A program made the translations under genes and the position numbers. A stretch of 64,000 nucleotides of DNA from Lophium mytilinum (lineage: Eukaryota). The first letter of the stretch is position 1. The number at the start of each line of letters is the position of its first letter. Where the stretch lies: NCBI GenBank assembly GCA_010093605.1, contig MU004202.1, forward strand, positions 383,560 to 447,559. The letters are read 5' to 3'. The notes beneath the pieces are model-generated. The model saw only the letters and a list, made by a program, of their open reading frames with translations. It had not been told where the DNA came from and did no database searches. Shown one piece after another: positions 5,444 through 50,636 of the stretch.

Positions 5444-5701
5444 ACAGATCTGATATCTTGTCGTAAATCTGCAATTACGCCCATTTTTACTGCTTGTAGT
5501 CTTTCAACATGTCAAGGGAGTATATATAGAGTAATGTGCCACTACTCTGAGGTATGCGCAGAGAGTCGTCACGTGACCCAAAATGCTTAATCTTACCACT
5601 TGTCCTGTCGTAAGCTCTTCTTATATTAGCACCCACGGATACAATGCTATGCCAATACAACAGTTTCAAATCATCAGTATGTACCCACTCACTTACCACT
5701 A

Positions 5702-5928
5702 CAGTGACAGGCCACAAGTCTGGGCACACTGACACGCCACTGCCTGGGGTACCCCCACAGGGTTTCGGAGACATAAGGGCGATGTCAAGCTTCAAGCAGT
5801 ACAGATTAGACATCCTCTTGACGTATTGCCTGTTCAGCAACCAGGCTACCCCGAACAGTGGTGTTGAGCGGGCAAGGTGGAGCCGAGCTGTAGTGAGTCC
5901 GTGTGCCCAGACTTGTGGCCTAGGACTG
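5702..5928 (+). mobile_element. 227-bp non-autonomous DNA transposon (MITE; Tc1/mariner-type CAGT...ACTG ends, TA target duplication), copy A
   Basis: Terminal inverted repeats cagtgacaggccacaagtctgggcac and gtgcccagacttgtggcctaggactg. TA at 5700-5701 and 5929-5930. Homologous over its full length to 11275-11501 in reverse orientation. Confidence 0.88.
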
Positions 5929-6102
5929 TACATAGGGCAATCCCGAGTGCCCTCAAAGGTAAGCTACGAAGCTAAGTTTTATACTGCGTAAATGCTCCTG
6001 ATAATGGTAGCTAACTACTATCGTTGTACCTAAATAGTAACATAACCGTACACCGTGTGTTAAGGCTTACAACTCAACGCTAAAACGTACAGAATAGTGC
6101 CT

Positions 6103-7540
6103 TCAACGAGTATTGTAAGTAAAGTCTCGCCCAGCATTCACATTCCCGATAAAAACGGCTCCTCCGCCCGATGACACGGCTCTCCTCTCGTTCTGCGGTG
6201 TCTTCCGTGTGTCTTCCTCCCGAGGCTGACTAGCATCTACCTCTTCGGGTGCTGAATTAGGCTCCGGTTCATCCTCGCTCTGTATCTGTGATTGGACCGG
6301 AGCCGCTGCCACCTCCGGCTTCTTTTTAGGTACCGCATCCGCCCACAGCCACAGTTGATCGCGAACTCGGATGTATCCAGCATCCATTTCGCCGCTAAAC
6401 TTCGTCATTTCAGAGTGATTTTGATGTATACTGGCGTTGGGGTAGTCTGGTAGGATGGCGGATTGGCGGGGAACGATCTGGTTCATAGTTAGCTCTTCCT
6501 TTGATGCTGTGTATTGATTCCTCTATATCGTTCCGAAAGCTTCACGTAGTCATCTCTACACCAGGTAAAGGCTTGACACGGCTCGACCCGAGCAGTGCGT
6601 AGTCCTGGTCATAAAGGAGGGGGTGTTTACGTACGTCGCCGATGCCTGGGTAAGACAGCTCTTCGTAGAAGCAGAATATATCGATCCACATCCCATCGTT
6701 CCTCCTTCTATCCTCTATCATGGTATGGAACTCTTGTTGAAGATTCGCTAGCATCTCTGATCCAGGGCTCAAAACCGCGACTATCTCTTTATTTGTCTTC
6801 CGCAGCAGGTTCGAAAGACGGGTGATCGGGCGTGCCCAATCGGCTTTGCTTGATCCAAGGTGCGGCGTGCCAATGAAAGCTATGGCAATGGTGCTTGGCA
6901 GAAGCGATTTCACGTACAGTTGCGAAGAGCCGCGAGCAATAAGCATTGCCTGCTCAACAACGAGCCCCCCAAGGCTATGGGCGACGAAGATGATTGGACG
7001 GTCGCTCTATTTCAATTAATGTTACATCATTCAAAACATATTGTTTCTTGCTCACTGATTGAGTCCGTATTCTGCGCATCGAGAGATCTTGAGCCAGGGA
7101 CTTGCCATGGTCGCGGATAGTATTCGAACCAGCAGTATTCAGAACGCGGATGACATCTGCGTCATATCCAAACGCGAGGATGCGCGCATATGGAAGTTCT
7201 TTAGTGAGGAGATCTCGGGGCCAATAGAGGGTTTTGTTGTATGTCCACGTCGTTTCGCGATTCCCGGTGAGGCCGTGGACGAAGACAATGCTGAGAGGAG
7301 TGTTAAAAAGACTTCATATATGTGACCGCATTGAAGAGAAGGGGTTGGCTACTCTACAGTATCTTGGTCGCTTTCTGCTAATGTTTTGAGTCCATGTTCT
7401 CCTGCGGTAGAGAACAGCGGCACGGGTGGTTCAGTTGGTTCGTGTTGATATTCCTCTTCCGGTTTCTTTTCCCCTTGCGGGGCTTCATCCTTTTGCGGCT
7501 TTTTACCCTTATTTCGGCCGAAAACGTCCCATACTGGCAT
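6103..7540 (-). CDS. SesB/SERAC1-like alpha/beta hydrolase (putative lipase) with a disordered linker and a C-terminal candidate amyloid motif
   Basis: Four exons (7353-7540, 7056-7290, 6635-7006, 6103-6477) splice in frame to ~389 aa. Motifs DIVFVHGLTG, WPRDLL, ARILAFGYDA, RPIIFVAHSLGGLVV, FIGTPHLGS, CFYEEL and IHQNHSEMTKF are typical of the SesB-type fungal NLR effector hydrolase domain. Confidence 0.88.
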
Positions 7541-8512
7541 TTTCCAATGTACAGACCTAGGATAGTACCGTTCGTGCTCCACAGATCCTTGTCAAGTCAC
7601 AAAATGGGGAAAGAGACCCTCTGTATCTTGGATTTGAACGGTTTTAGACTTGCTCGTCGGAAGGTCAGCTTCTTATGTTCAGATAAGACTGTCCGTGCCA
7701 GTCTTCAGGCTGCGGCTCAAGGCGGGGTACAAAAGTAAGGCTTGCCTAAATATAAAGTGGTAGCCTAACGATGTCGGAGGTGGACGAGAGAGCTATCAGG
7801 CTTTCCAAAGTTATTGCATTAAACGTCTGCGTTATATAGCAGAGGACATCCAGCACTGCCAGAGTTTTACACTACTTTGCTAAATGATATCTCAAGATCA
7901 AGTCTCCGGACTAGTAGAATGCCACTTTTGTGTTGACGGGAGCCTGGGGCTGAGCCCGATTCTATGACGTGCATGGCGCTCAGCCGCACCCTTCATCAAT
8001 AACAACCTTCACGAATCCATCGCAACGCCTATATGACCAGACGACGTTGCAGCACGTGTAAAGATATCTTAGATGTTTGAAACAGATATAGGCTAGTCTT
8101 TATCCTAACGGATGGCTCAAGTAGCGGTTGAAAGCGGGGGTGGTGCGGTGTTCCAAGGGGACATCTCCGCAGGCAGAGATATTACCATTAGTGAGTGCAA
8201 AGCTGAGAAAAGGCCTCGAAAATGCATCAGTGTTTAGGAATGTCTGTTTAAGTGACAGACTTTCGCTAGAGTTTAGGCGCACGGATATACCACCGCTCGG
8301 CCTCTACTTCTGCTCCTACGATATCACCGTGAAGAGTACTTCAGCTAGCACGCAGCGGGTCACTTAAGAGACAGTCCGATCTTCACTGCGCAAACCCTTG
8401 CAGTGCGTTCGGGGTCTCAAGAGCCCGTAGAGTCCGCCCGAGCAGCGATAAATCAGAAGTGCCCATACTTTTGGCAAGACATTATACTCGGAGGCCCTTT
8501 GCCGAGTCATGA

Positions 8513-11009
8513 ATGTCTGAACTCGCTGACCTCGTCCGCCAGATCATATCACGGAGATACGGCAAGTCACAGAACATCTATACAACCGTTCCGGTGCTGT
8601 AGAAGATGTCTCGGATCAGCTGCTTGGCCGTTTAGATGTGCTGAACATGACCGCGGAGCTTGTCGAAGAATACGCAAAGGACGTCCAAGCCAGTGTTCCA
8701 CCAGACGAACCTCGACTGCAAATAATCTTCCGGGAATGCGCCTCAATCCTGTCAGACCTGCGCCGACTTGGAGCTTTGATTGAAGCTGACGGCAATGGGA
8801 ATAGTTCAGATAGTACTCGGCATCCCAGCTTCTCGATCAATGAAGAGATAATGGACGTCAGATCTAGACTGATGAGTCTTCAATTCAACCTCAGTCATGT
8901 TCACAACAGAAAAAAAGCAGAGGAAAGAGCGAAGGATAACGATACGATCAAGAAAGTGGTTACCGAGCTCATGAACGGCCCCGCAAATGCAGACGACACA
9001 TCGTCTATCCGGACCTTCTACACGGCATCATCAATCCCTTACGTAGAAAGAAAAATGTGGGGAGAGGTCGAGAGAGCTTTACGCTCACGTTTCACAGTGG
9101 AATTCGTGCGGGACAATTATGCCTTGATCGTGGCCACAGTCGAAGAAACCGTTTGGGAAAAAACCACGTTTGAATCGGTAGACATCGTACGTGTCAACAC
9201 CGCTGGCAGTTTTGAATCGTTAGATACCACTCCACCTGAATCTGCTTCGTCATACGATTACTTCAGAGGAAGCAGGCGTGGCGGGGCCGATAAGACGGGA
9301 CGTAGCTGGGCGAGCAGTGTTGATGACCATGACGGCGAGCGCCTGTTGACTCTCGGTTCGTAACTCCGCCGTCATCTTGTTGCTTATAACTTACATTTTT
9401 ATAAGATGGAGGAGGAGTGCGGTCTTACTCTAGCGTGCTCATCATTCAGGAGCTCATAAACGAGATCGCACGATACGAAGATATTTTTGAGAAAGAATTC
9501 ACATTCTACCCTCGAAAATTCGACCCTAGGAGCCTCCGGCCATGTCACTACTTCGACAAGATGTATGGTACATCGACTGGAGGGTGAGTACGCCTGATTT
9601 TTACACTGTCTCGAAGTCTTATAGTAAACGCTTTATTGACTTCCCAATTGACGTTACCGATTCTTTACTTGAGTTCACTATCTATGCTTTAGATACTTAG
9701 CTAAGACCTGTCTTCAGAATATTGGCCATAGCCCTCAGTCGCCTCCGAATGACCGTTCCTGAAACGATTGGCGCGTTTCGCAGGCTTGTTACCGCTATGT
9801 TCACGAATAGCCGAAGCGCGATTCCTCTCGCCACAAAGTACAATCACAGGCCTTTCGAAAACACTCTCGAGGAAATGGTTCAGTTTTACTGCAAACAGCA
9901 CCGATCAGGTACTTGCAACCGCACAGAACAGTTTCCATGGGAATCAGCGGAGGATCACGATACAGACCCACTTTGCCAAACGTAAGTGTATCAGCTTTCC
10001 TCTAGAAGCGATTATCAGCCATGCCCTAGGAGATTAGAACGCTAACCAGGGGAGCTTTGCTTGCCGAGGGAGGTATGATTTGCACACTCTCAGTATGATG
10101 TTGACTTCTTGTAGGATATGTCTGACCAGTGACGCACCCGCCACCGGCATATCCGAGGCGTATCTTCTCCGCACCTACGATCATACATACTTTCAGGCTC
10201 CCAGCTGGGTAACACAGTACAATAGCGGGGTGGCTGATATGTCCATCGGGCAAGTTGCTCGAGCAACGACTGCTACACCCTTTTACTTCAAGCCGGTTCA
10301 AGCATTCATTGGCGACCCGCCAGTCCTCACTACACTCAAAGACGGTGGTATTAGAGAGAACAACCCAAGTGCCTGCGCATGGATGGAGAACGCGTCGTTC
10401 CACGGAAATGACGCAAGACCAAGTGTTCTTCTGTCCATTGGCGCAGGCAAATTCAAACCCCAATCAGAGGGAGGGTCATCGTCTCGAACCCAACAGTACG
10501 CAAAGCGATTCGCTGGGTTCATAAGCGTTTTCCTCCAAGCGGTGGAGGGGGAGGAGAGGCATAAAGTAATGCGGACCCTCGCTGGAGGCGACCACACTTG
10601 GTACAAGCGCCTCAACGTCACCACCGGTCTTGAAAACATCAAACTCGATACGTGGGAGTCAGGATTATGGGAACCCCTAGGAAGCGATGGACGGAGTAAA
10701 AATTATCGTGGAGGAAAGACGATGAACAGGATACAGATTGCGACAGAGGCATACCTAAATGATGATGCGCACCTAAATGAAGATGCGATCGGAGAGATCT
10801 CGCCAAGAGAAATGTTGAAGCAGACTGCAGAGAAACTGGTTCGATCCCGGAGGGCTCGGGAGTTCGAGGCTATGACGGAAGGTGGCGAGAAACGTGAGCG
10901 ATGGGAGACGTACATGGGCAAGCATCTCGCTGGCGAGCGAGACTTTTTCCAGGAATACCTGGCGCAGTGGGACTATGCATTGCTGGGTCGAAAGGAACAA
11001 CACGACTAG
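8513..11009 (+). CDS. Patatin-like phospholipase with an N-terminal helical (HeLo/SesA-like?) domain
   Basis: Introns 9356-9405, 9584-9717 and 9982-10114 give LLTL-DGGGVRS, nucleophile GTSTGG, ARATTATPFYF and catalytic DGG (LKDGGIRENNP). The 5' end is uncertain: ATG 8513 is out of frame with the main ORF, there is a possible acceptor at 8542, and an in-frame ATG at 8647. Confidence 0.82.
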
Positions 11010-11151: not shown

Positions 11152-11600
11152 CAGTACTAGGTCATTAGTGTAGGCACACAGATTTGTCACTGCTTCGGTC
11201 GAATCTTGCTTACTCGACTTCACTGTTAGGAGTAGCTTGGCTACTTATTAGCCAGTCAGCCAAGCGGCAGTCTACAGTACTAGGCCTTAAGTCTGGGCAT
11301 ATCAACTCATTACAGGTTGGATCCAGTTTGCTCACTCGATACCACTGTCCGGGGTAGCCTGACTACTAAGTAGCCAATTAGTCAAGAAGCAGTCTAATTT
11401 ATACTGCTTGAACCTCGACATCACTCTTAGATCTTCATAATCCTACTGGGGAACCCCAAGCAGTGGCGAACCAAGGTGCCCAGACTTGTGGCCTGTGACT
11501 GTAATTCGCATTGCTAGAGACATCACTTCGGCCTTGGGTTTTCGAAACTCTGTGGTGGTACCCCAAGTAAATGTCAGTATCCCTTAGCCCGCACTCTGCC
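11152..11600 (-). mobile_element. Older degenerate copy of the same MITE, interrupted by copy B
   Basis: 11152-11274 (cagtactaggtcattagtgtaggcacac...gcagtcta) matches the first half of the element. After copy B the sequence resumes with second-half-like sequence (gacatcac...cgaaactctgtggtggtaccccaag). Right end approximate. Confidence 0.65.
11275..11501 (-). mobile_element. 227-bp MITE copy B, inverted relative to copy A
   Basis: cagtactaggccttaagtctgggca ... gtgcccagacttgtggcctgtgactg, with TA at 11273-11274 and 11502-11503. Same length as copy A. Confidence 0.88.
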
Positions 11601-16255: not shown

Positions 16256-16805
16256 CAGGACTTTCACGCACTGATAGGTACTATTCCCGGTGTCTATGCT
16301 GCTCCTGCTTCCTATTTTGGAGAATTCGGATGGACGATATTTGCGTGTAGTCACGTCACCCTCGCCGTTATCATGAATATAACCGCACTCATTGATTCCA
16401 ATATAAGCTCAGATTCGATTCAAACTATCTTGTGACATGTTTCTACAGGTATCTAGGCGTGGTGTCAATTTCCAGGCAATATAGATTAGAGTGCTGTTTA
16501 ACTCACTCGCTTAGGACTAGCTAGGCCACTCCTGCCAGTGGTATAAAGCTAACAAGATTGAAGCCGAACAGTATTAATCCCGGATATCTACGTTTGTGAA
16601 CTCCCAGCCTTTCCGCAAGTAATCAGCCAACGTGCCAAACCATCTCCACTACCTCGTGCACGCAAGCGGCTCCAAATTGAGACAAAGAAGCCATGAGCAA
16701 TTCATCGGCCTTTAACCAAGCTACTCCCATTGTTCCAAAAGCGTATTCAAAGTCCCAAAAACTCAAAAAACCCACACATAAACCACTCATCGGAGCCATC
16801 GCGCA

Positions 16806-33473: not shown

Positions 33474-36400
33474 ATGAGCGTCACCACCAGCTCCCCGAAC
33501 GTCGAACCGCCTCCCCTTCTGTTCGGCCAGCGCTCTCCTTCGCCGCCTTCCTTCTCCTCACCACCCCAATCACCAAATCACATACACCACTCGCAAACCC
33601 CTCTTGCATCTCCACCCCCACACACAGCCGACGACATCGACATGAATGCGTCGACCACACTACCGCCCACCGACGGCCAAAACCACGACCGGGACATCCC
33701 AATGGAAGTGGATGGGGACGCTCTGCCGAATGGCACTGCGGGAGAGGGGACACAACCAGGAGCTCCCATACCGACAAACGGGGTGGCAGAGGCGGTCACT
33801 GCTGATGACGACGCTATGGACACAACGCCGGACGGCACACAAGAGGAACAGCTTCCCAATGGCTCAGCCGACGCCTCGGGGGCTGTTGAATCTCTGGCCG
33901 CTGCTCCCATACAAAATGGTGTCGATCAAGACGCGCCCACATCTCCAGACCGACACTCAACCCCGCCCACCGTGAACGAAAACCTAGTACGACTGAACTC
34001 GAATGGCAGCTCCGTAGCATCCGCAGTCGACCCTCCCCCACCACCAGAAGGGACTGTGGCCCCAGTCGAGCCTCCTCCTCCGATTGCGGACCCAAACGCG
34101 GAACAGCCCCCACCTCCTCCGGCTGAGCCTCCGGCCGATGTCACTGACTCGTCTGACGAGGACGACGGTGCTCAGCCCTGGCATCCGATCATCGAAGACA
34201 CTTCGGCACCAGATGAAGGCGAGCTGAAGGAGATCGAGGAAGGTACCGAGGTTAGCGCTCTAGACCGTAAGTTCAACTTTCCGCTTTTGCATGATTATGC
34301 TCACGTAATGTGTAGATGAGCATTGGGAAGAGAAGACCTTTCTCCCCCTCGAGGAGACCGAGTACGTTGCTGGTCAGACTGGCCGCATCAATTGGGTTGT
34401 AGACAACTACAATGGTACTAAGGAAACACCAAACCGGGACCTTGTCATGAAGTCACAACTAGTGACAGTTGGGGGATACGATTGGCAAATAAAGTTCTAC
34501 CCCAAGGGCAATGACTCGGATTATTTGAGTGTATATGTCGAGTGCGTCAGCGTAGTAAAAGAGGAGAAAGAGAAGGCCTCGCCTAACGAGAACACGGAAA
34601 AGCCAGAGGAAGCGGGTTCAGACGAGGCGAAAGCCCCATCTAATGATGAGATGGCCACAGACGATGTTCCAGAGCCCGCCCCGCTAGAGCCTCAGCATGC
34701 GCCTCTCCCTCTGCTTGTAGAAAAGCCCCTTTCGAAACGCCCGAGTGTCGCTGCACAAGTTTCAGTCGTCTTATACAACCCAACCGAACCGCGAGTAAAC
34801 TACATCCGAACTTGCCTACACCGATTTTGCACTGGCTCGCCGGATTGGGGATGGACTCGGTACCATGGACCATACTATGAAATTCAACACAGGCAGCGTG
34901 GCCAGCGCCAAGCCCTACTTCGCGATGATAAGCTCGCCTTCACTGGCTACATCCGAGTAGTTGACGACGAAACCGCATGTCTCTGGGAGCATCACAGCCG
35001 AGACAACCCATGGGACAGCTTTGCCATGACCGGGCTTCAAGGAATGAGTCTAGGTGAAACTCAAATCACCCCCGGAGGCAACCTCATTTCTGCGATTGCT
35101 TCTTGGATGCTTTTCAAGCCTTTCCGTCAATTTTTGTATAATTTCAAATTACCCGACTCTCTCAAAGAGCCCTTCGTGCGGCCAAAGCTTCTGATTGCGG
35201 CGTTTCAAAAAGTGCTCTATCTGCTGCGGACACAGGTTAAGCCGGGCGCAGGCCCCGTTGGGCTAGAGGACATCATCGATGCACTTGAGTGGTACGGCAT
35301 TCAAGACGGCTTCGACAAGATGGATGTCATCGAAGTCTGGGAGACGTTGAGGACTAAGATGGAGGACGAGCTACAAGACACCTCGTACGCATCCATCTTC
35401 GACGAACTATTTGGAAAGAAGAAAAATTACGTTACTGGGATCCCAAGCTACAGGGCCCCTGTGCAGGGCGCCTCTACCATGCAAGAAGCGATCGCAAAGT
35501 CTACCGATCTATTGCATCCTAGTCAGTCTCTACCGCAGCTGCTGACAGTGGAGCTTGATCGGCAAGCTTTCGACTCAAATTCGCGGACGTGGCTCAAGTT
35601 GGTGAACAAGGTTACCCTGGACGACAACATCACCGTTCGCGGTGTGGGCTACACACTATATGGGATGGTAGTACACAAAGAAAATCTCCAGTCCTATTTG
35701 TACCACCCCATCATCCGACCAGAAGGGCCGAACAGCAAATGGTATAGCTATACAGACAGTAAAGATGAGAACCGGGTACTTTGCCTGACAAAGCGGCAAG
35801 CTGTAGACGCACACGAGGGCAAAGCTGGCTCGGAGATGAATGGAGGGAAAGACCCAGTAGCATACATCGCCATGTATGTACGGAACGATGTAGCAGACCT
35901 CGCCTTCAACAGCAGCGGCGCAGACGAGGCTTGGGACGTACCAGAATGGCTTTTGGACGAAGTCAAGAAGGCTGAGGCGACCACCGCACGTGCACCACCA
36001 GCGCCATTCGGTGCCTTACCAGAACCGCCGGCAGCACCCAAGACTGACGCAGAGAAAGAAGCCGAGGAGACGGAAAAAGAGGCACAAGCCACAACTCACG
36101 AATTCTACGTCATTGATTCCAAGGCATTCATGGAGCACGAAGGGCCGGGAACGATTGACGCCTATGATCCTAAGTGGAATCCGGAAAACTCGAACCTTGT
36201 CTACAAAGTACAGCTCAAATCTAACGACGGGTGTAAGGAGGTGCGGGATAAGCTTGCGGCGGTAGTCCAAGATATCAAGGATCCCCGACAAATCAAATTT
36301 TGGTTCTCGGACGCTCTACGAGGATCAGCTTACCGGCCACATCTGTTGGGGACTGGAAAGATTGAGTACTCCAGCGGTACCAACGATCACTTTAACGACA

Positions 36401-37794
36401 AGGGAGAGGAGTGGTCGCTGAAGGACATCGAAGACAGCTTGTCTTACTATCGTATCTGGATTCACGTACTTGATTTTGACAGTCTCCCCGAGCTACCAGT
36501 CGAGGAGCCGCCAAAAGAACCGGAAACCACACAGCCTGTCCCAGAAGCCTCTACTCAACCTGAAGTCCCATCCGAGCCGGTTGTTGAAGAAATCCCACCA
36601 CCGACCGAGGAGACTGTCACCCCGGCAGAGCTTCCTGTGGCGCCTGTGCCAGAGGCTATTCCTGAATCGGAGGATACGCCGATGAGCGAGCCTGACGAGC
36701 CCGAACCGGAACCAGCGCCAGAGGAACCGCCCGTCGTCCCGGTAGTCGAAGAAACGCACCCAGACGAGGTCATGGAAATTGAGGCTGCTATCCATGCTTC
36801 TCTTACAGAAGCAACCGCTACAGAGCCTCCTGCAGTAGAAGTCGTGATCCCGATTCCACCTCCGCCAACAGACACCGAGATGGGCGGAACCGACGCGCTG
36901 CCACCACCTCCCCCGCCGGCTGAGTTCACGCAACCACCACCACCTCCACCTCCAGCGCCCGATGAAATCTACTTCTTCCTCAAATTCTTCGACGCCGAGG
37001 CCCAAACCCTCACACCCCGCGGCTCGCACATCGCGGTAAAATCCGCCCGCGTCGACCAAACAATCCTCTCCCTCCTCTCCCTCCCCACCGATACCTCCCT
37101 CGAGCTCCACGAAGAGCAAGAACTAACAACAACCCACTCCCTCCGCCTCCGGCGCTCCTTTGCCCAAAACGACCTCCACAACACCGCCATCATTATCGCC
37201 ACGGTGCCGCTAACCGAAGACCAGCGCGCCGCGCTCGCCACCCGCGCCGCCTTCGCCGACCCCCAGGCCTACCTCGTCCACCGCGCCCTGCTGCGCAACT
37301 CCCCCCACAAAGCCACAGGCCACTTCACCCTCAACTACTTCTCGGCGCAGATGTACAAGGGCGACCTCGTCGCCGGCCACAAGCACGGCCACGGCACGCG
37401 CATCTACCACACGGGCGCCGTGTACAGCGGCAGCTTCCGCCTCGGGCTGCGCCACGGGCACGGGCTGTTCACGTACCAGAACGGGGATACGTACGACGGC
37501 GACTGGGTGGCTGGGCAGCAGCATGGCACGGGGACGTTTGTGGAGGCGAGTAGCGGGAATACGTATGTGGGCGGGTGGAAGAACGATAAGAGGTTTGGGG
37601 AGGGGGTGACGCATTGGAAGGTTGCGCAGGAGACGGAGAGGTTGTGTCGGATTTGCTGGGAGGAGGGGGCTGAGGCGGCGTTTTATGATTGTGGGCATGT
37701 GGTGGCGTGTTTGGGGTGTGCAAGGAGGGTGGATCATTGCCCGGTTTGTAGGCGGAGGGTGTTGGCGGCGATGAAGTTGTTTTATGTGAGTTGA
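33474..37794 (+). CDS. MATH + degenerate UCH/USP-like + MORN repeats + C-terminal C3HC4 RING protein
   Basis: Intron ~34267-34315. MATH (VGGYDWQIKFYPKGNDSDYLSVY...HRF...DWGW), USP-like middle region, MORN repeats (YSGSFRLGLRHGHG, YDGDWVAGQQHGTG), RING CRICWEE...CGHVVACLGCARRVDHCPVCR. Confidence 0.9.
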
Positions 37795-49405: not shown

Positions 49406-50636
49406 ATGGCGTCCTCCAAGGTGTACGAAACCTTCCCCGTCCACCCCGGAAGCATGGAAATCCGATTCCTCGAACTTCGCCCCCCTTTCTCCGATGTTCT
49501 CAGCTGCAAGCTCTCTGTCGTTACTCTCAAAAGCGGACCCCCACCATTCATTGCACTCTCGTACGAATGGGGCGCCGACGACGCGAACCACGTCATGTCC
49601 CTCGACGGCCACGACGTGAGTATTCGACACAACCTGTGGTTGGCACTGAAGAACATCACGAAACACCACGCAAGGCTCGTGCAAGATTGTCAGAATCACC
49701 ATCAACGACCCCGTCAAGATTTTCAAAAAGTAGGTCGTTTACCCAGCGGCGTCCGGCCCCGGCCTCTTCCTATTTGCCAATCCGCCTTCACAGATCCACT
49801 GGAAGTGGGCAATCCCCACCGTACCCCATCCCACGGACTCCCTATTCATATGGGTAGACGCCATCTGCATCGACCAAGACAACATCCCAGAACGCAACCA
49901 CCAAGTCGACCTCATGCGAGACATATACTCCAGCGCGGCTCTCGTCTTGGTCTGGCTCGGCCCAGCCGCCGACGACAGCGCGTTCGCGATTCGGAACATC
50001 CGCTACGAGAAGCCCGGTACTGGGCTCGTACGCAAGGAGTTCCTCGCCGTCCATCGCTTACTATGCCGCACGTACTGGGAGCGGATGTGGATAGTTCAGG
50101 AATTCATCCTTGGCCGCAGCGTGCTCGTGCATTGCGGCGACGGGTACTTCTATTGGCGGGAACTCTGGAAGTTCCTCCAAGCTTACGAGGCTCTTGCTGA
50201 ACTTTCGGAAAGACATCGGAATCTGTACGCTGGTCTTGAGAGCTCGCTCGGCGTGAAGGTCGTGCGCGCGAAGCAAGATTTCTCGGACTCTGCTTGGGCC
50301 CTAGATCTCCCCGAGTTGGTTCTGCAGTGGTCGGGTCAAAAGTGCATGGATCCTCGAGACAGGGTCTTTGCATTGTTGGGGATACCCGTAAGCGCTGCTG
50401 TTTGGAGAGATGAAAAGGCAGAGGGGTTTCGGGTCGATTACTCAAGAAGTGCCGAGCAGGTTTACTCTGACGTTTGTCGTTGTTTTGGCTCTACTTTGAA
50501 GCCTGTCGCAATGGAAGCGTTCTCCACGAAGTTAATGGGGATCCTGGATGTGCAGTCATCTCACGAGATTGTTGAACGAGCTCATTCGTGGACGAAGACT
50601 TCGGCCAGGGAGAACGCTACCGAGTTTTCACAGTGA
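49406..50636 (+). CDS. HET-domain (heterokaryon incompatibility, HET-6-like) protein
   Basis: EIRFLEL, FIALSYEWG, NLWLAL, IWVDAICIDQDNIPERNHQVDLMRDIYSSA, YWERMWIVQE, DPRDRVFALLG. A probable intron 49730-49793 joins the two frames (weak branch site, so a frameshift is not excluded). Confidence 0.9.

Follow-up and report, generated by a model that had tools for sequence, protein, structure and literature searches.

In the fungus Lophium mytilinum (Dothideomycetes, order Mytilinidiales), two adjacent and divergently transcribed genes encode hydrolases that carry the same motif of about 22 residues, one at its extreme C-terminus and the other at its extreme N-terminus. Both lie in a 64,000-nucleotide stretch of contig MU004202.1 (assembly GCA_010093605.1, positions 383,560 to 447,559), here called the window, whose own numbering is used throughout. 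Gene A (6103..7540, minus strand) encodes a SesB-like, DUF676-type serine hydrolase of 389 aa, and gene B (8112..11009, plus strand) encodes a protein of 742 aa in which the motif is followed by a helical domain and a patatin-like phospholipase. The pair of motifs, their conservation, the adjacency of the genes and the catalytically complete hydrolase domains are observed here. The reading that we favor, with a probability of roughly one half, is that a new amyloid-signalling-like motif family links these two lipases, the patatin protein standing in the usual position of a NOD-like receptor (NLR).

Two hydrolases with one terminal motif

The similarity between the two proteins is local and strong. 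When the six-frame translation of the whole window is scanned with the 24-residue gene A motif (ungapped, BLOSUM62), the motif itself scores 123, a site 1.9 kb away on the opposite strand, at the head of gene B, scores 75, and the next best site scores 30. Thirty composition-preserving shuffles give maxima with a mean of 27.5 (standard deviation 3.6, highest 34) against the 75 of gene B. The tail of A and the head of B are identical at 15 of 24 aligned residues, and the joint consensus is S-G-G-G-[AP]-[VI]-F-x-G-[ND]-[VI]-x-A-G-R-D-[FIL]-x-[YI]. Within this frame some differences are fixed by side, A reading F-[MI]-G-N...F-x-Y where B reads F-Q-G-D...I-T-I.

The motif is also conserved. It is single-copy in gene A and in every homologue, rich in glycine and asparagine, and built with alternating hydrophobic residues. 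Alignment A1 holds 11 gene A homologues, from Cucurbitaria, several Alternaria and unnamed metagenome proteins; the motif stands at the very end of 10, and the exception, P0011 (311 aa), stops early. These 10 share the consensus S-G-G-G-[AP]-[VI]-F-[MI]-G-N-[VI]-x-A-G-R-D-[FL]-x-Y, and S368, G369-371, F374, G376 and A380-D383 are nearly invariant in the alignment. Over the 45 pairs among these 10, identity averages 84% in the catalytic core, 74% in the motif and 31% in the linker. Judged from this alignment, selection is acting on the tail motif of gene A and not on its surroundings.

Gene A is read from four coding exons on the minus strand (7540-7353, 7290-7056, 7006-6635 and 6477-6103, stop included), and the joined translation is 100% identical to P0001, a hypothetical DUF676 protein of L. 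mytilinum. P0001 matches PF05057 (DUF676) with 33.6 bits (cut-off 20.3, E 3.6e-8) and PF12697 with 26.9 bits (cut-off 26.3, E 9e-6), two members of the DUF676/PGAP1/Abhydrolase_6 set of Pfam families used for SesB-like domains in PMC9815663. The nucleophile elbow AHSLGG (GxSxG; 6965..6982, minus strand) is kept in all homologues covering the site. By its Pfam matches above the gathering score and this conserved GxSxG, gene A is a SesB-like alpha/beta-hydrolase. The catalytic domain is followed by a linker (residues 313-362; 6187..6336, minus strand) that varies in length and sequence, is gapped and poorly aligned in A1, and holds 12 Asp or Glu and 8 Pro in 50 residues. After this acidic and proline-rich tether comes the C-terminal motif, AVSSGGGAVFIGNVNAGRDFTYNTR followed by the stop, whose core AVSSGGGAVFIGNVNAGRDFTY occupies residues 365-386 (6115..6180, minus strand). 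The last exon runs from 6477 to 6106 with its stop at 6105-6103, and its translation ends in TPQNERRAVSSGGGAVFIGNVNAGRDFTYNTR; the terminus of the four-exon protein reads QNERRAVSSGGGAVFIGNVNAGRDFTYNTR.

An earlier reading of the letters of the window, referred to below as the original prediction, had described a SesB-like lipase in which an acidic, proline-rich linker leads to a terminal motif. The DUF676 score and the AHSLGG elbow agree with the first part, the composition of the linker agrees with the second, and the terminal sequence, a stretch of 29 aa at 6106-6192, is exactly as claimed. The prediction would have fallen if the motif varied freely among homologues, and it does not. What the prediction lacked was the partner, the adjacent and divergent patatin gene that bears a second copy.

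A spliced contig supports the structure of gene A. Run X1, which is presumably RNA, yields a contig of 1458 nt from which three coding introns are spliced out (6478-6634, 7007-7055 and 7291-7352). The contig spans 6030-6477 and so places the motif-coding end of gene A in a spliced, transcript-like molecule. Because it skips exactly the coding introns and an intron in the 5' untranslated region (UTR), the gene A model is confirmed. According to the pieces of X1 contig record 1, the 5' UTR extends to at least 7852 and contains an intron at 7649-7745. This UTR intron has a GC..AG boundary on the minus strand and is bridged by the spliced contig. From the end of the gene A 5' UTR to the ATG of gene B there are at most 260 bp, and the interval 7541..8111, defined by the X1 contig pieces and the sequence, is a putative shared divergent promoter region.

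Gene B is assembled from five exons (8112-8190, 8543-9355, 9406-9583, 9718-9981 and 10115-11009, stop included), which together read as one open frame closed only by its terminal stop; the four introns between them are all GT..AG. The Alternaria homologues P0013 and P0014, used as tblastn queries, cover all exons, and an X1 contig bridges the intron 9356-9405. The N-terminal motif QVAVESGGGAVFQGDISAGRDITI (residues 3-26; 8118..8189, plus strand) fills exon 1, which is ATG-initiated, reads MAQVAVESGGGAVFQGDISAGRDITI and runs into a GTGAGT donor; past an intron of 352 nt (8191-8542) the frame resumes with HITEIRQV. The homologues P0012 (Bipolaris maydis), P0013 (Alternaria alternata) and P0014 (A. 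burnsii) start with M-x(7)-VVDSGGGAVFQGDVTAGRDITINHITEIRQ, and in Alternaria and Bipolaris the proteins continue from the motif onward as ...ITINHITEIRQ. Since these homologues open with the motif and are uninterrupted, they fix the start codon of gene B and the splice of its first intron, and it is from them that the intron 8191-8542 is deduced.

In Lophium this 352-nt intron falls exactly at the boundary of the motif and the helical domain. Its origin as an insertion of a miniature inverted-repeat transposable element (MITE) was considered and rejected, as blastn finds no similarity to the flanking element described below. In the metagenome loci L001-L015, with the exception of L013, the junction ITIN-[HQ]-ITEIR has no intron. 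A database search returned no protein of at least 477 aa that is identical to Lophium gene B in this part, so public annotation may lack its motif exon.

The domain behind the motif (8545..9192, plus strand) comprises about 215 residues. An AlphaFold2 (AF2) model, ma33d8d035f1e, with a mean predicted local distance difference test (pLDDT) score of 76, displays an antiparallel three-helix coiled coil and a smaller helical sub-domain (helices 22-50, 56-83, 94-144, 165-182 and 192-216), and a low-confidence linker sits between this domain and the patatin domain. Pfam gives no family match at E<=10 in 31 members of the B family, only scattered coiled-coil-type noise, and a Foldseek search of the PDB gives no match at E<=0.001. 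A wide VIA-align search returns only generic three-helix or coiled-coil bundles; its best match, a designed bundle with a Z of 14.6, is within the range common for helical models, and therefore no family is assigned. A protein-language-model look-up gives a weak pointer, to be taken as a lead only, toward fungal PigL_N/HeLo-like and SesA clusters (scores 0.87-0.92). Among the cluster members PF17111 is carried by 39% at a score of 0.90, and PF17111 by 28% and PF17107 by 15% at 0.87.

The patatin-like phospholipase domain (9403..10700, plus strand) is recognized by PF01734 in the homologues P0013 and P0014 with 49-50 bits (cut-off 27.7), and the separate gene B exons of the window score 16.6 and 20.2 bits, under the cut-off. 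The joined model keeps GGGVR (residue 299), GTSTG (352) and DGG (521), that is, the GGGxR/K oxyanion motif, the GxSxG serine and the DG[GA] aspartate. By the Pfam match of its homologues and these complete catalytic motifs, gene B is a patatin-like phospholipase. Pfam detects no NACHT, NB-ARC, WD, TPR or ANK domain in gene B or its homologues. An AF2 model of full-length P0014 has a mean pLDDT of 51; its patatin part is poorly folded because the alignment is too shallow, and that part is disregarded. A complex prediction with two copies of B(1-45, from P0014) and A(345-389), run with no controls, scores 0.02 and speaks neither for nor against binding.

Carriers of the motif and the paired loci

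Two database-wide searches with profile A3, which comprises 11 motif instances, show where the motif occurs. The first queried 5.8 billion proteins (longer proteins up to 2000 aa) through a word index and scored 7,999 candidates, giving 65 matches at E<=10. Of these, 35 are A-type hydrolase fragments with the motif at their C-terminus, in 27 the motif lies in the first 37 residues and is followed by IN[HQ][IF]TE, as is typical of B, and 3 are weak and unrelated (E 0.026-4.6). The second, in which HMMER scanned 1.84 billion cluster representatives in full, gives 42 matches at E<=1e-3, 33 of them new; 14 of the new sequences were inspected and 27 were scanned against Pfam. The eukaryote-like matches among the inspected sequences are all A- or B-type. 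Distant A-type tails (P0063, P0087, P0088 and P0097) and distant B-type heads (P0062 and P0084) indicate that both families reach beyond the named species. No NACHT or NB-ARC (NOD) domain is found on the motif-bearing matches of either search, the Pfam scan covering 27 of the 33 new HMMER matches.

Only four matches of the full scan are longer than 400 aa, the B-type P0091 and three bacterial-looking proteins, P0090, P0094 and P0085. P0090 (699 aa) is a bacterial-type CHAT and FGE-sulfatase protein with an internal DSGGGAVFEGAVTAGRDI, nearly identical to the B-type motif; the element is followed by GD-rich short repeats and could serve prokaryotic conflict systems as a linker or adaptor. P0094 is a TPS/haemagglutinin-repeat protein and P0085 a Gly/Asp-rich repeat protein, and in both G-[ND]-[VI]-T-A-G-R-D-[VI] recurs as a repeat unit. 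Along with P0064, they are weak profile matches among beta-helical proteins (TPS/haemagglutinin, LbH-like) with rungs of the form G-[ND]-[VI]-[TS]-A-G-R-[DQE]-[VI]. Such matches are consistent with a motif that corresponds to one beta-solenoid rung.

The two genes also stay together. When metagenome contigs are scanned for the B family, 15 loci emerge. In all 10 whose sequence extends beyond about 500 bp upstream of B, an A homologue is head-to-head with B; the remaining 5 have at most 394 bp there and are uninformative on pairing. The tail motif is present in each of the 7 loci that contain the 3' end of A. Beyond the pair the genes vary. Uso1/p115 occurs in four loci, one locus has a carboxylesterase, a P450 and an M35 peptidase beside the pair, another has an alpha/beta-hydrolase and a PfkB kinase, and FMO and F-box-like protein genes flank it in the window. 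With neighbors that change from one locus to the next, A and B thus travel together, and no NLR accompanies them. Of the 101 open reading frames (ORFs) of at least 130 aa in the window, the 91 scanned contain neither NACHT nor NB-ARC, the other ten being antisense ORFs, MITE ORFs or ORFs scanned as exons, and neither domain is found in the 13 ORFs scanned of 82 listed for the flanks of related loci.

Several features of these loci are worth recording in their own right. At L012:312-420 the gene B homologue has in-frame stops at Gln positions after the motif (ITIN-stop-ITEIR-stop-V), which could mark a pseudogene or reflect C-to-T mutations. In the window, a MITE-like palindromic element of 231 nt lies just past the 3' end of gene A (5700..5930), and a second copy, inverted and 77% identical to the first, lies just past the 3' end of gene B (11273..11503). 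The two inverted copies, with terminal inverted repeats of about 44 nt, bracket exactly the A-B module, and partial copies lie near 11152-11274, 11512-11565 and 16451-16544. An 18-nt repeat core of the element has 5 matches in the window (at most 3 mismatches) against 0.07 expected, four of them in the two elements.

Further away, an ORF at 49734-50636 (plus strand) encodes a HET (heterokaryon incompatibility) domain (PF06985, E 1.1e-19) and holds no copy of the motif; by this domain it is another gene of the non-self-recognition type in the window. A single frame of 1161 aa at 34309-37794 (plus strand) combines MATH, UCH, USP7 ICP0-binding, MORN repeat and C-terminal RING finger domains, a set that is unusual for a USP7-like protease and may reflect two fused gene models.

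Relation to known amyloid signalling motifs

SesB-like lipases that carry an amyloid motif at the C-terminus form an established class of effectors, represented by SESB with the sigma motif and SBP with the PP motif (PMC5485727). The A-B pair has the general layout of an amyloid pair, with an effector whose C-terminal motif sits on a variable linker and the same motif at the N-terminus of the adjacent gene product. It departs from that layout in that the protein with the N-terminal motif is not an NLR, which would combine NACHT or NB-ARC with WD, TPR or ANK repeats. In composition (G, N, V and I, alternating hydrophobic residues and a G-[ND] turn) the motif agrees with what is described for amyloid signalling motifs and beta-helix rungs (10.1101/2020.01.06.895854; PMC4518210).

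Among the closest known systems are the sigma locus of Nectria haematococca (SESA, SESB and HET-eN) and the PP cluster of Chaetomium and Podospora (HELLP, SBP and PNT1), which also have a SesB-like hydrolase with an extreme C-terminal motif (PMC5485727). As in the A-B pair, the motif recurs on the product of a neighbor and more than one protein of the cluster bears it (PMC5485727). The A-B motif differs in sequence, matching neither PF17046 nor PF17106 and lacking G-phi-Q-phi-G. Furthermore, the neighbor is a patatin protein with an N-terminal motif rather than a HeLo-like protein with a C-terminal one, and the cluster has no NLR.

A second set of parallels involves HET-S/NWD2 and the motifs HRAM1-5, in which adjacent divergent genes are again found and the partner carries one N-terminal copy (PMC4518210). 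The published HRAM motif has 21 residues and occurs as two pseudo-repeats on the effector and as a single copy on the adjacent NLR, whereas the A-B core has about 22 residues (PMC4518210). Both have a G-[ND] turn preceded by phi-x-phi, and gene B has Q where HRAM4 has Q (PMC4518210). Unlike in the HET-S and HRAM systems, the A-B effector is a hydrolase and not a HeLo protein, it has a single copy, and its partner is not an NLR; the conserved part also runs on C-terminally as A-G-R-D-phi-x-phi. The HRAM rule specifies G19, hydrophobic residues at 5, 8, 10, 16 and 18, R or K at 15 and N, Q or H at 3 (PMC4518210). With the G of F-x-G-[ND] taken as position 19, positions 16, 18, 19 and 20 agree on both sides (V/I16, I/M18, G19 and N20 on A; V16, Q18, G19 and D/N20 on B). 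The R or K at 15 and the hydrophobic residues at 5, 8 and 10 do not, since A or P stands at position 15, GGG at 12-14 and variable or polar residues at 3-10; nor does the effector have two pseudo-repeats, there being one copy. A register that takes the glycine of AGRD as position 19 was rejected, as by reading it fits worse.

The PNP_UDP-associated amyloid signalling motif (PUASM), a family defined only recently, provides another comparison, as an enzyme effector has the C-terminal motif and its neighbor the N-terminal one (PMC9815663). PUASM has an ARD or GND triplet near its end where the A-B motif has A-G-R-D (PMC9815663). Its effector is PNP_UDP and its partner a NACHT NLR, and the A-B motif is without FxGxGxQxxGxGxF (PMC9815663). 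On reading, the motif contains neither this pattern nor the PP core G-phi-Q-phi-G, both as defined in PMC9815663 and 10.1101/2020.01.06.895854. The strings SGGGA, SGGGP and AGRD in motif context are absent from 9 of the 11 supplementary files of PMC9815663, a count that covers all except files 9 and 10.

Patatin has its own precedent in fungal NLRs of the PLP-1 type (patatin-NB-ARC-TPR), in which it serves as a cell-death module in non-self recognition (PMC12881547). Gene B differs from PLP-1 in having no NB-ARC or TPR and an N-terminal motif and coiled-coil domain instead. A 2017 review states that patatin had not been found in a two-gene (amyloid) architecture (PMC5485727). The literature covered, with figure logos and bioRxiv supplements outside its scope, neither describes the A-B motif nor reports an amyloid motif on a patatin protein. 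The most fitting description of the motif is that of a new family which shows the general hallmarks of amyloid signalling motifs.

Proposed mechanism and its alternatives

The proposal is that genes A and B would constitute a conserved two-gene module in which the shared motif of about 22 residues physically couples two lipid hydrolases. Each motif would fold into one beta-arch rung, and the rungs of B and A would stack in register to generate a cross-beta, beta-solenoid-like spine, yielding an open-ended or at least heteromeric assembly. Assembly would begin on the patatin protein B, whose coiled-coil domain would gather its N-terminal motifs and thereby supply the proximity that is given by NLR oligomerization in the HET-S/NWD2, sigma, PP and PUASM systems. 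The B assembly would then recruit, concentrate or activate hydrolase A, and the output would be a joint attack on membrane lipids by a phospholipase and a lipase in a cell-death or defence response. Patatin and SesB-like domain types are both tied to regulated cell death in fungi (PMC9815663, PMC12881547). The placement of the motif is that of amyloid motifs, at the extreme C-terminus on a flexible linker in A and at the extreme N-terminus of the adjacent gene product in B. A more far-reaching version is possible, though on balance doubtful, in which an NLR-free system uses the coiled-coil patatin protein B to nucleate a new class of beta-arch motif and to template the SesB-like lipase next door, the motif class being common to bacterial CHAT-type linker elements.

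To our knowledge, all characterized fungal and bacterial amyloid signalling pairs have the N-terminal motif on an NLR that acts as the nucleator. Unlike in those pairs, no NLR nucleator of the A-B motif is found in the window ORFs scanned or in the database-wide searches, and this is one of several points that weigh against an amyloid-like link between A and B. The tail has no match at E<=10, and P0001 none at E<=1, to the Pfam amyloid-motif families (HET-s PF11558, HET-S PF17108, sigma/PP PF17106 and PF17046). A comparison of profile A3 with the PDB finds no HET-s chain at E<=10, its ten matches being antibodies and chance. The HRAM rule is followed only in part, and the B-side motif is more acidic than the A-side motif, the opposite of the charge-poor HRAM motifs on the NLR side (PMC4518210). 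In the AF2 model of full-length P0014 the motif is of low confidence and its last residues are modelled as the beginning of a helix. X1 has no coverage over 7881-9077, which leaves exon 1 and the first intron of gene B without read support. Motif carriers with species names are all Dothideomycetes, and 13 of the 15 metagenome contig names come from one series, so these loci are not independent samples. Finally, the binding of A to B through the motif, its cross-beta fold, the direction of templating and a role in cell death are all steps that we infer.

These results also redraw the original prediction. The likeness to HET-s repeat 2 that it proposed lacks statistical support, as there is neither a Pfam HET-s match nor a PDB HET-s chain. 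On the other hand, its view of a single-repeat motif outside the sigma and PP patterns holds, PUASM being a further pattern that does not fit, and because the motif fits no sigma, PP, PUASM or Pfam HET-s model, the suggestion of a possible new class stands. It had rightly noted that the window contains no NLR. It had also assumed the canonical model in which an NLR activates the lipase, with the motif shared by the N-terminus of such a receptor; in neither database-wide search does an NLR N-terminus share the motif. As no NLR has the motif and a motif-bearing patatin gene is adjacent, the canonical model is not what the data show, and they fit an NLR-less A-B pair better. The interpretation as a whole is thus kept in part, retaining a conserved, single-copy C-terminal motif on a SesB-like hydrolase and losing the HET-s likeness and the NLR partner.

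An alternative is that the coupling is not amyloid, and we regard it as somewhat unlikely. The motif would then be a discrete interaction module, for instance a beta-hairpin or beta-augmentation tag that holds A and B in a heteromer of fixed stoichiometry, or both proteins would use it to dock onto a third factor (a chaperone, a membrane anchor or a protease, for example), and there would be no open-ended templating. Several observations are in keeping with it: the motif occurs once per protein, and AF2 merges part of B's motif into the first helix. Furthermore, the near-identical string in P0090 is internal, between two domains, and looks more like a linker or adaptor than a terminal prion-like tail. 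However, a terminal motif on both proteins, a long disordered tether on A, the pattern of glycine, asparagine and hydrophobic residues and the head-to-head genes are together the signature by which amyloid motifs are discovered (PMC9815663), and the only other matches are rungs of beta-helical proteins.

It is unlikely that the system is a canonical NLR-dependent one whose receptor is encoded elsewhere, with A and B both acting as downstream effectors in the manner of SESA/SESB or HELLP/SBP. In that case an unlinked NACHT or NB-ARC protein with a more diverged N-terminal motif would template A and B in trans. Clusters with several effectors are known, and unlinked NLR/effector pairs are suspected from motifs that co-occur genome-wide (PMC9815663 and PMC5485727). 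Moreover, an E of 1e-3 in 1.84 billion sequences needs about 35 bits, so an NLR-side motif of about 50% identity could escape the search. Set against this are the two database-wide searches, which find no motif-bearing NLR, and the ORFs scanned in the window (91 of 101) and in the flanks (13), which hold no NACHT or NB-ARC. The motif of B is also N-terminal, which is the receptor-side position and is unlike known effectors, and the A-B module shifts its genomic context as a pair only.

Lastly, a functionless similarity due to chance, recent local duplication or gene conversion is very improbable: the two copies are separated by just 1.9 kb, in a segment with MITE-like elements on its flanks, but the scan score is far above the shuffles and the side-specific differences are kept across Mytilinidiales, Pleosporales and 10 paired loci, conservation data by which this explanation is effectively refuted.

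An amyloid-signalling-like link between A and B would have consequences for how such systems are sought and understood. Motif discovery pipelines look for motifs beside NLR genes. Since they start from those genes, a conserved pair without an NLR would be invisible to such screens. The hydrolase domains of A and B are both of kinds known as NLR-associated effector domains. If the proposal is correct, it would represent enzyme-to-enzyme prion-like activation and the first patatin protein in a two-gene amyloid architecture. Amyloid-like templating would then be used outside NLR signalling, and patatin would join the effectors that are controlled by such motifs.

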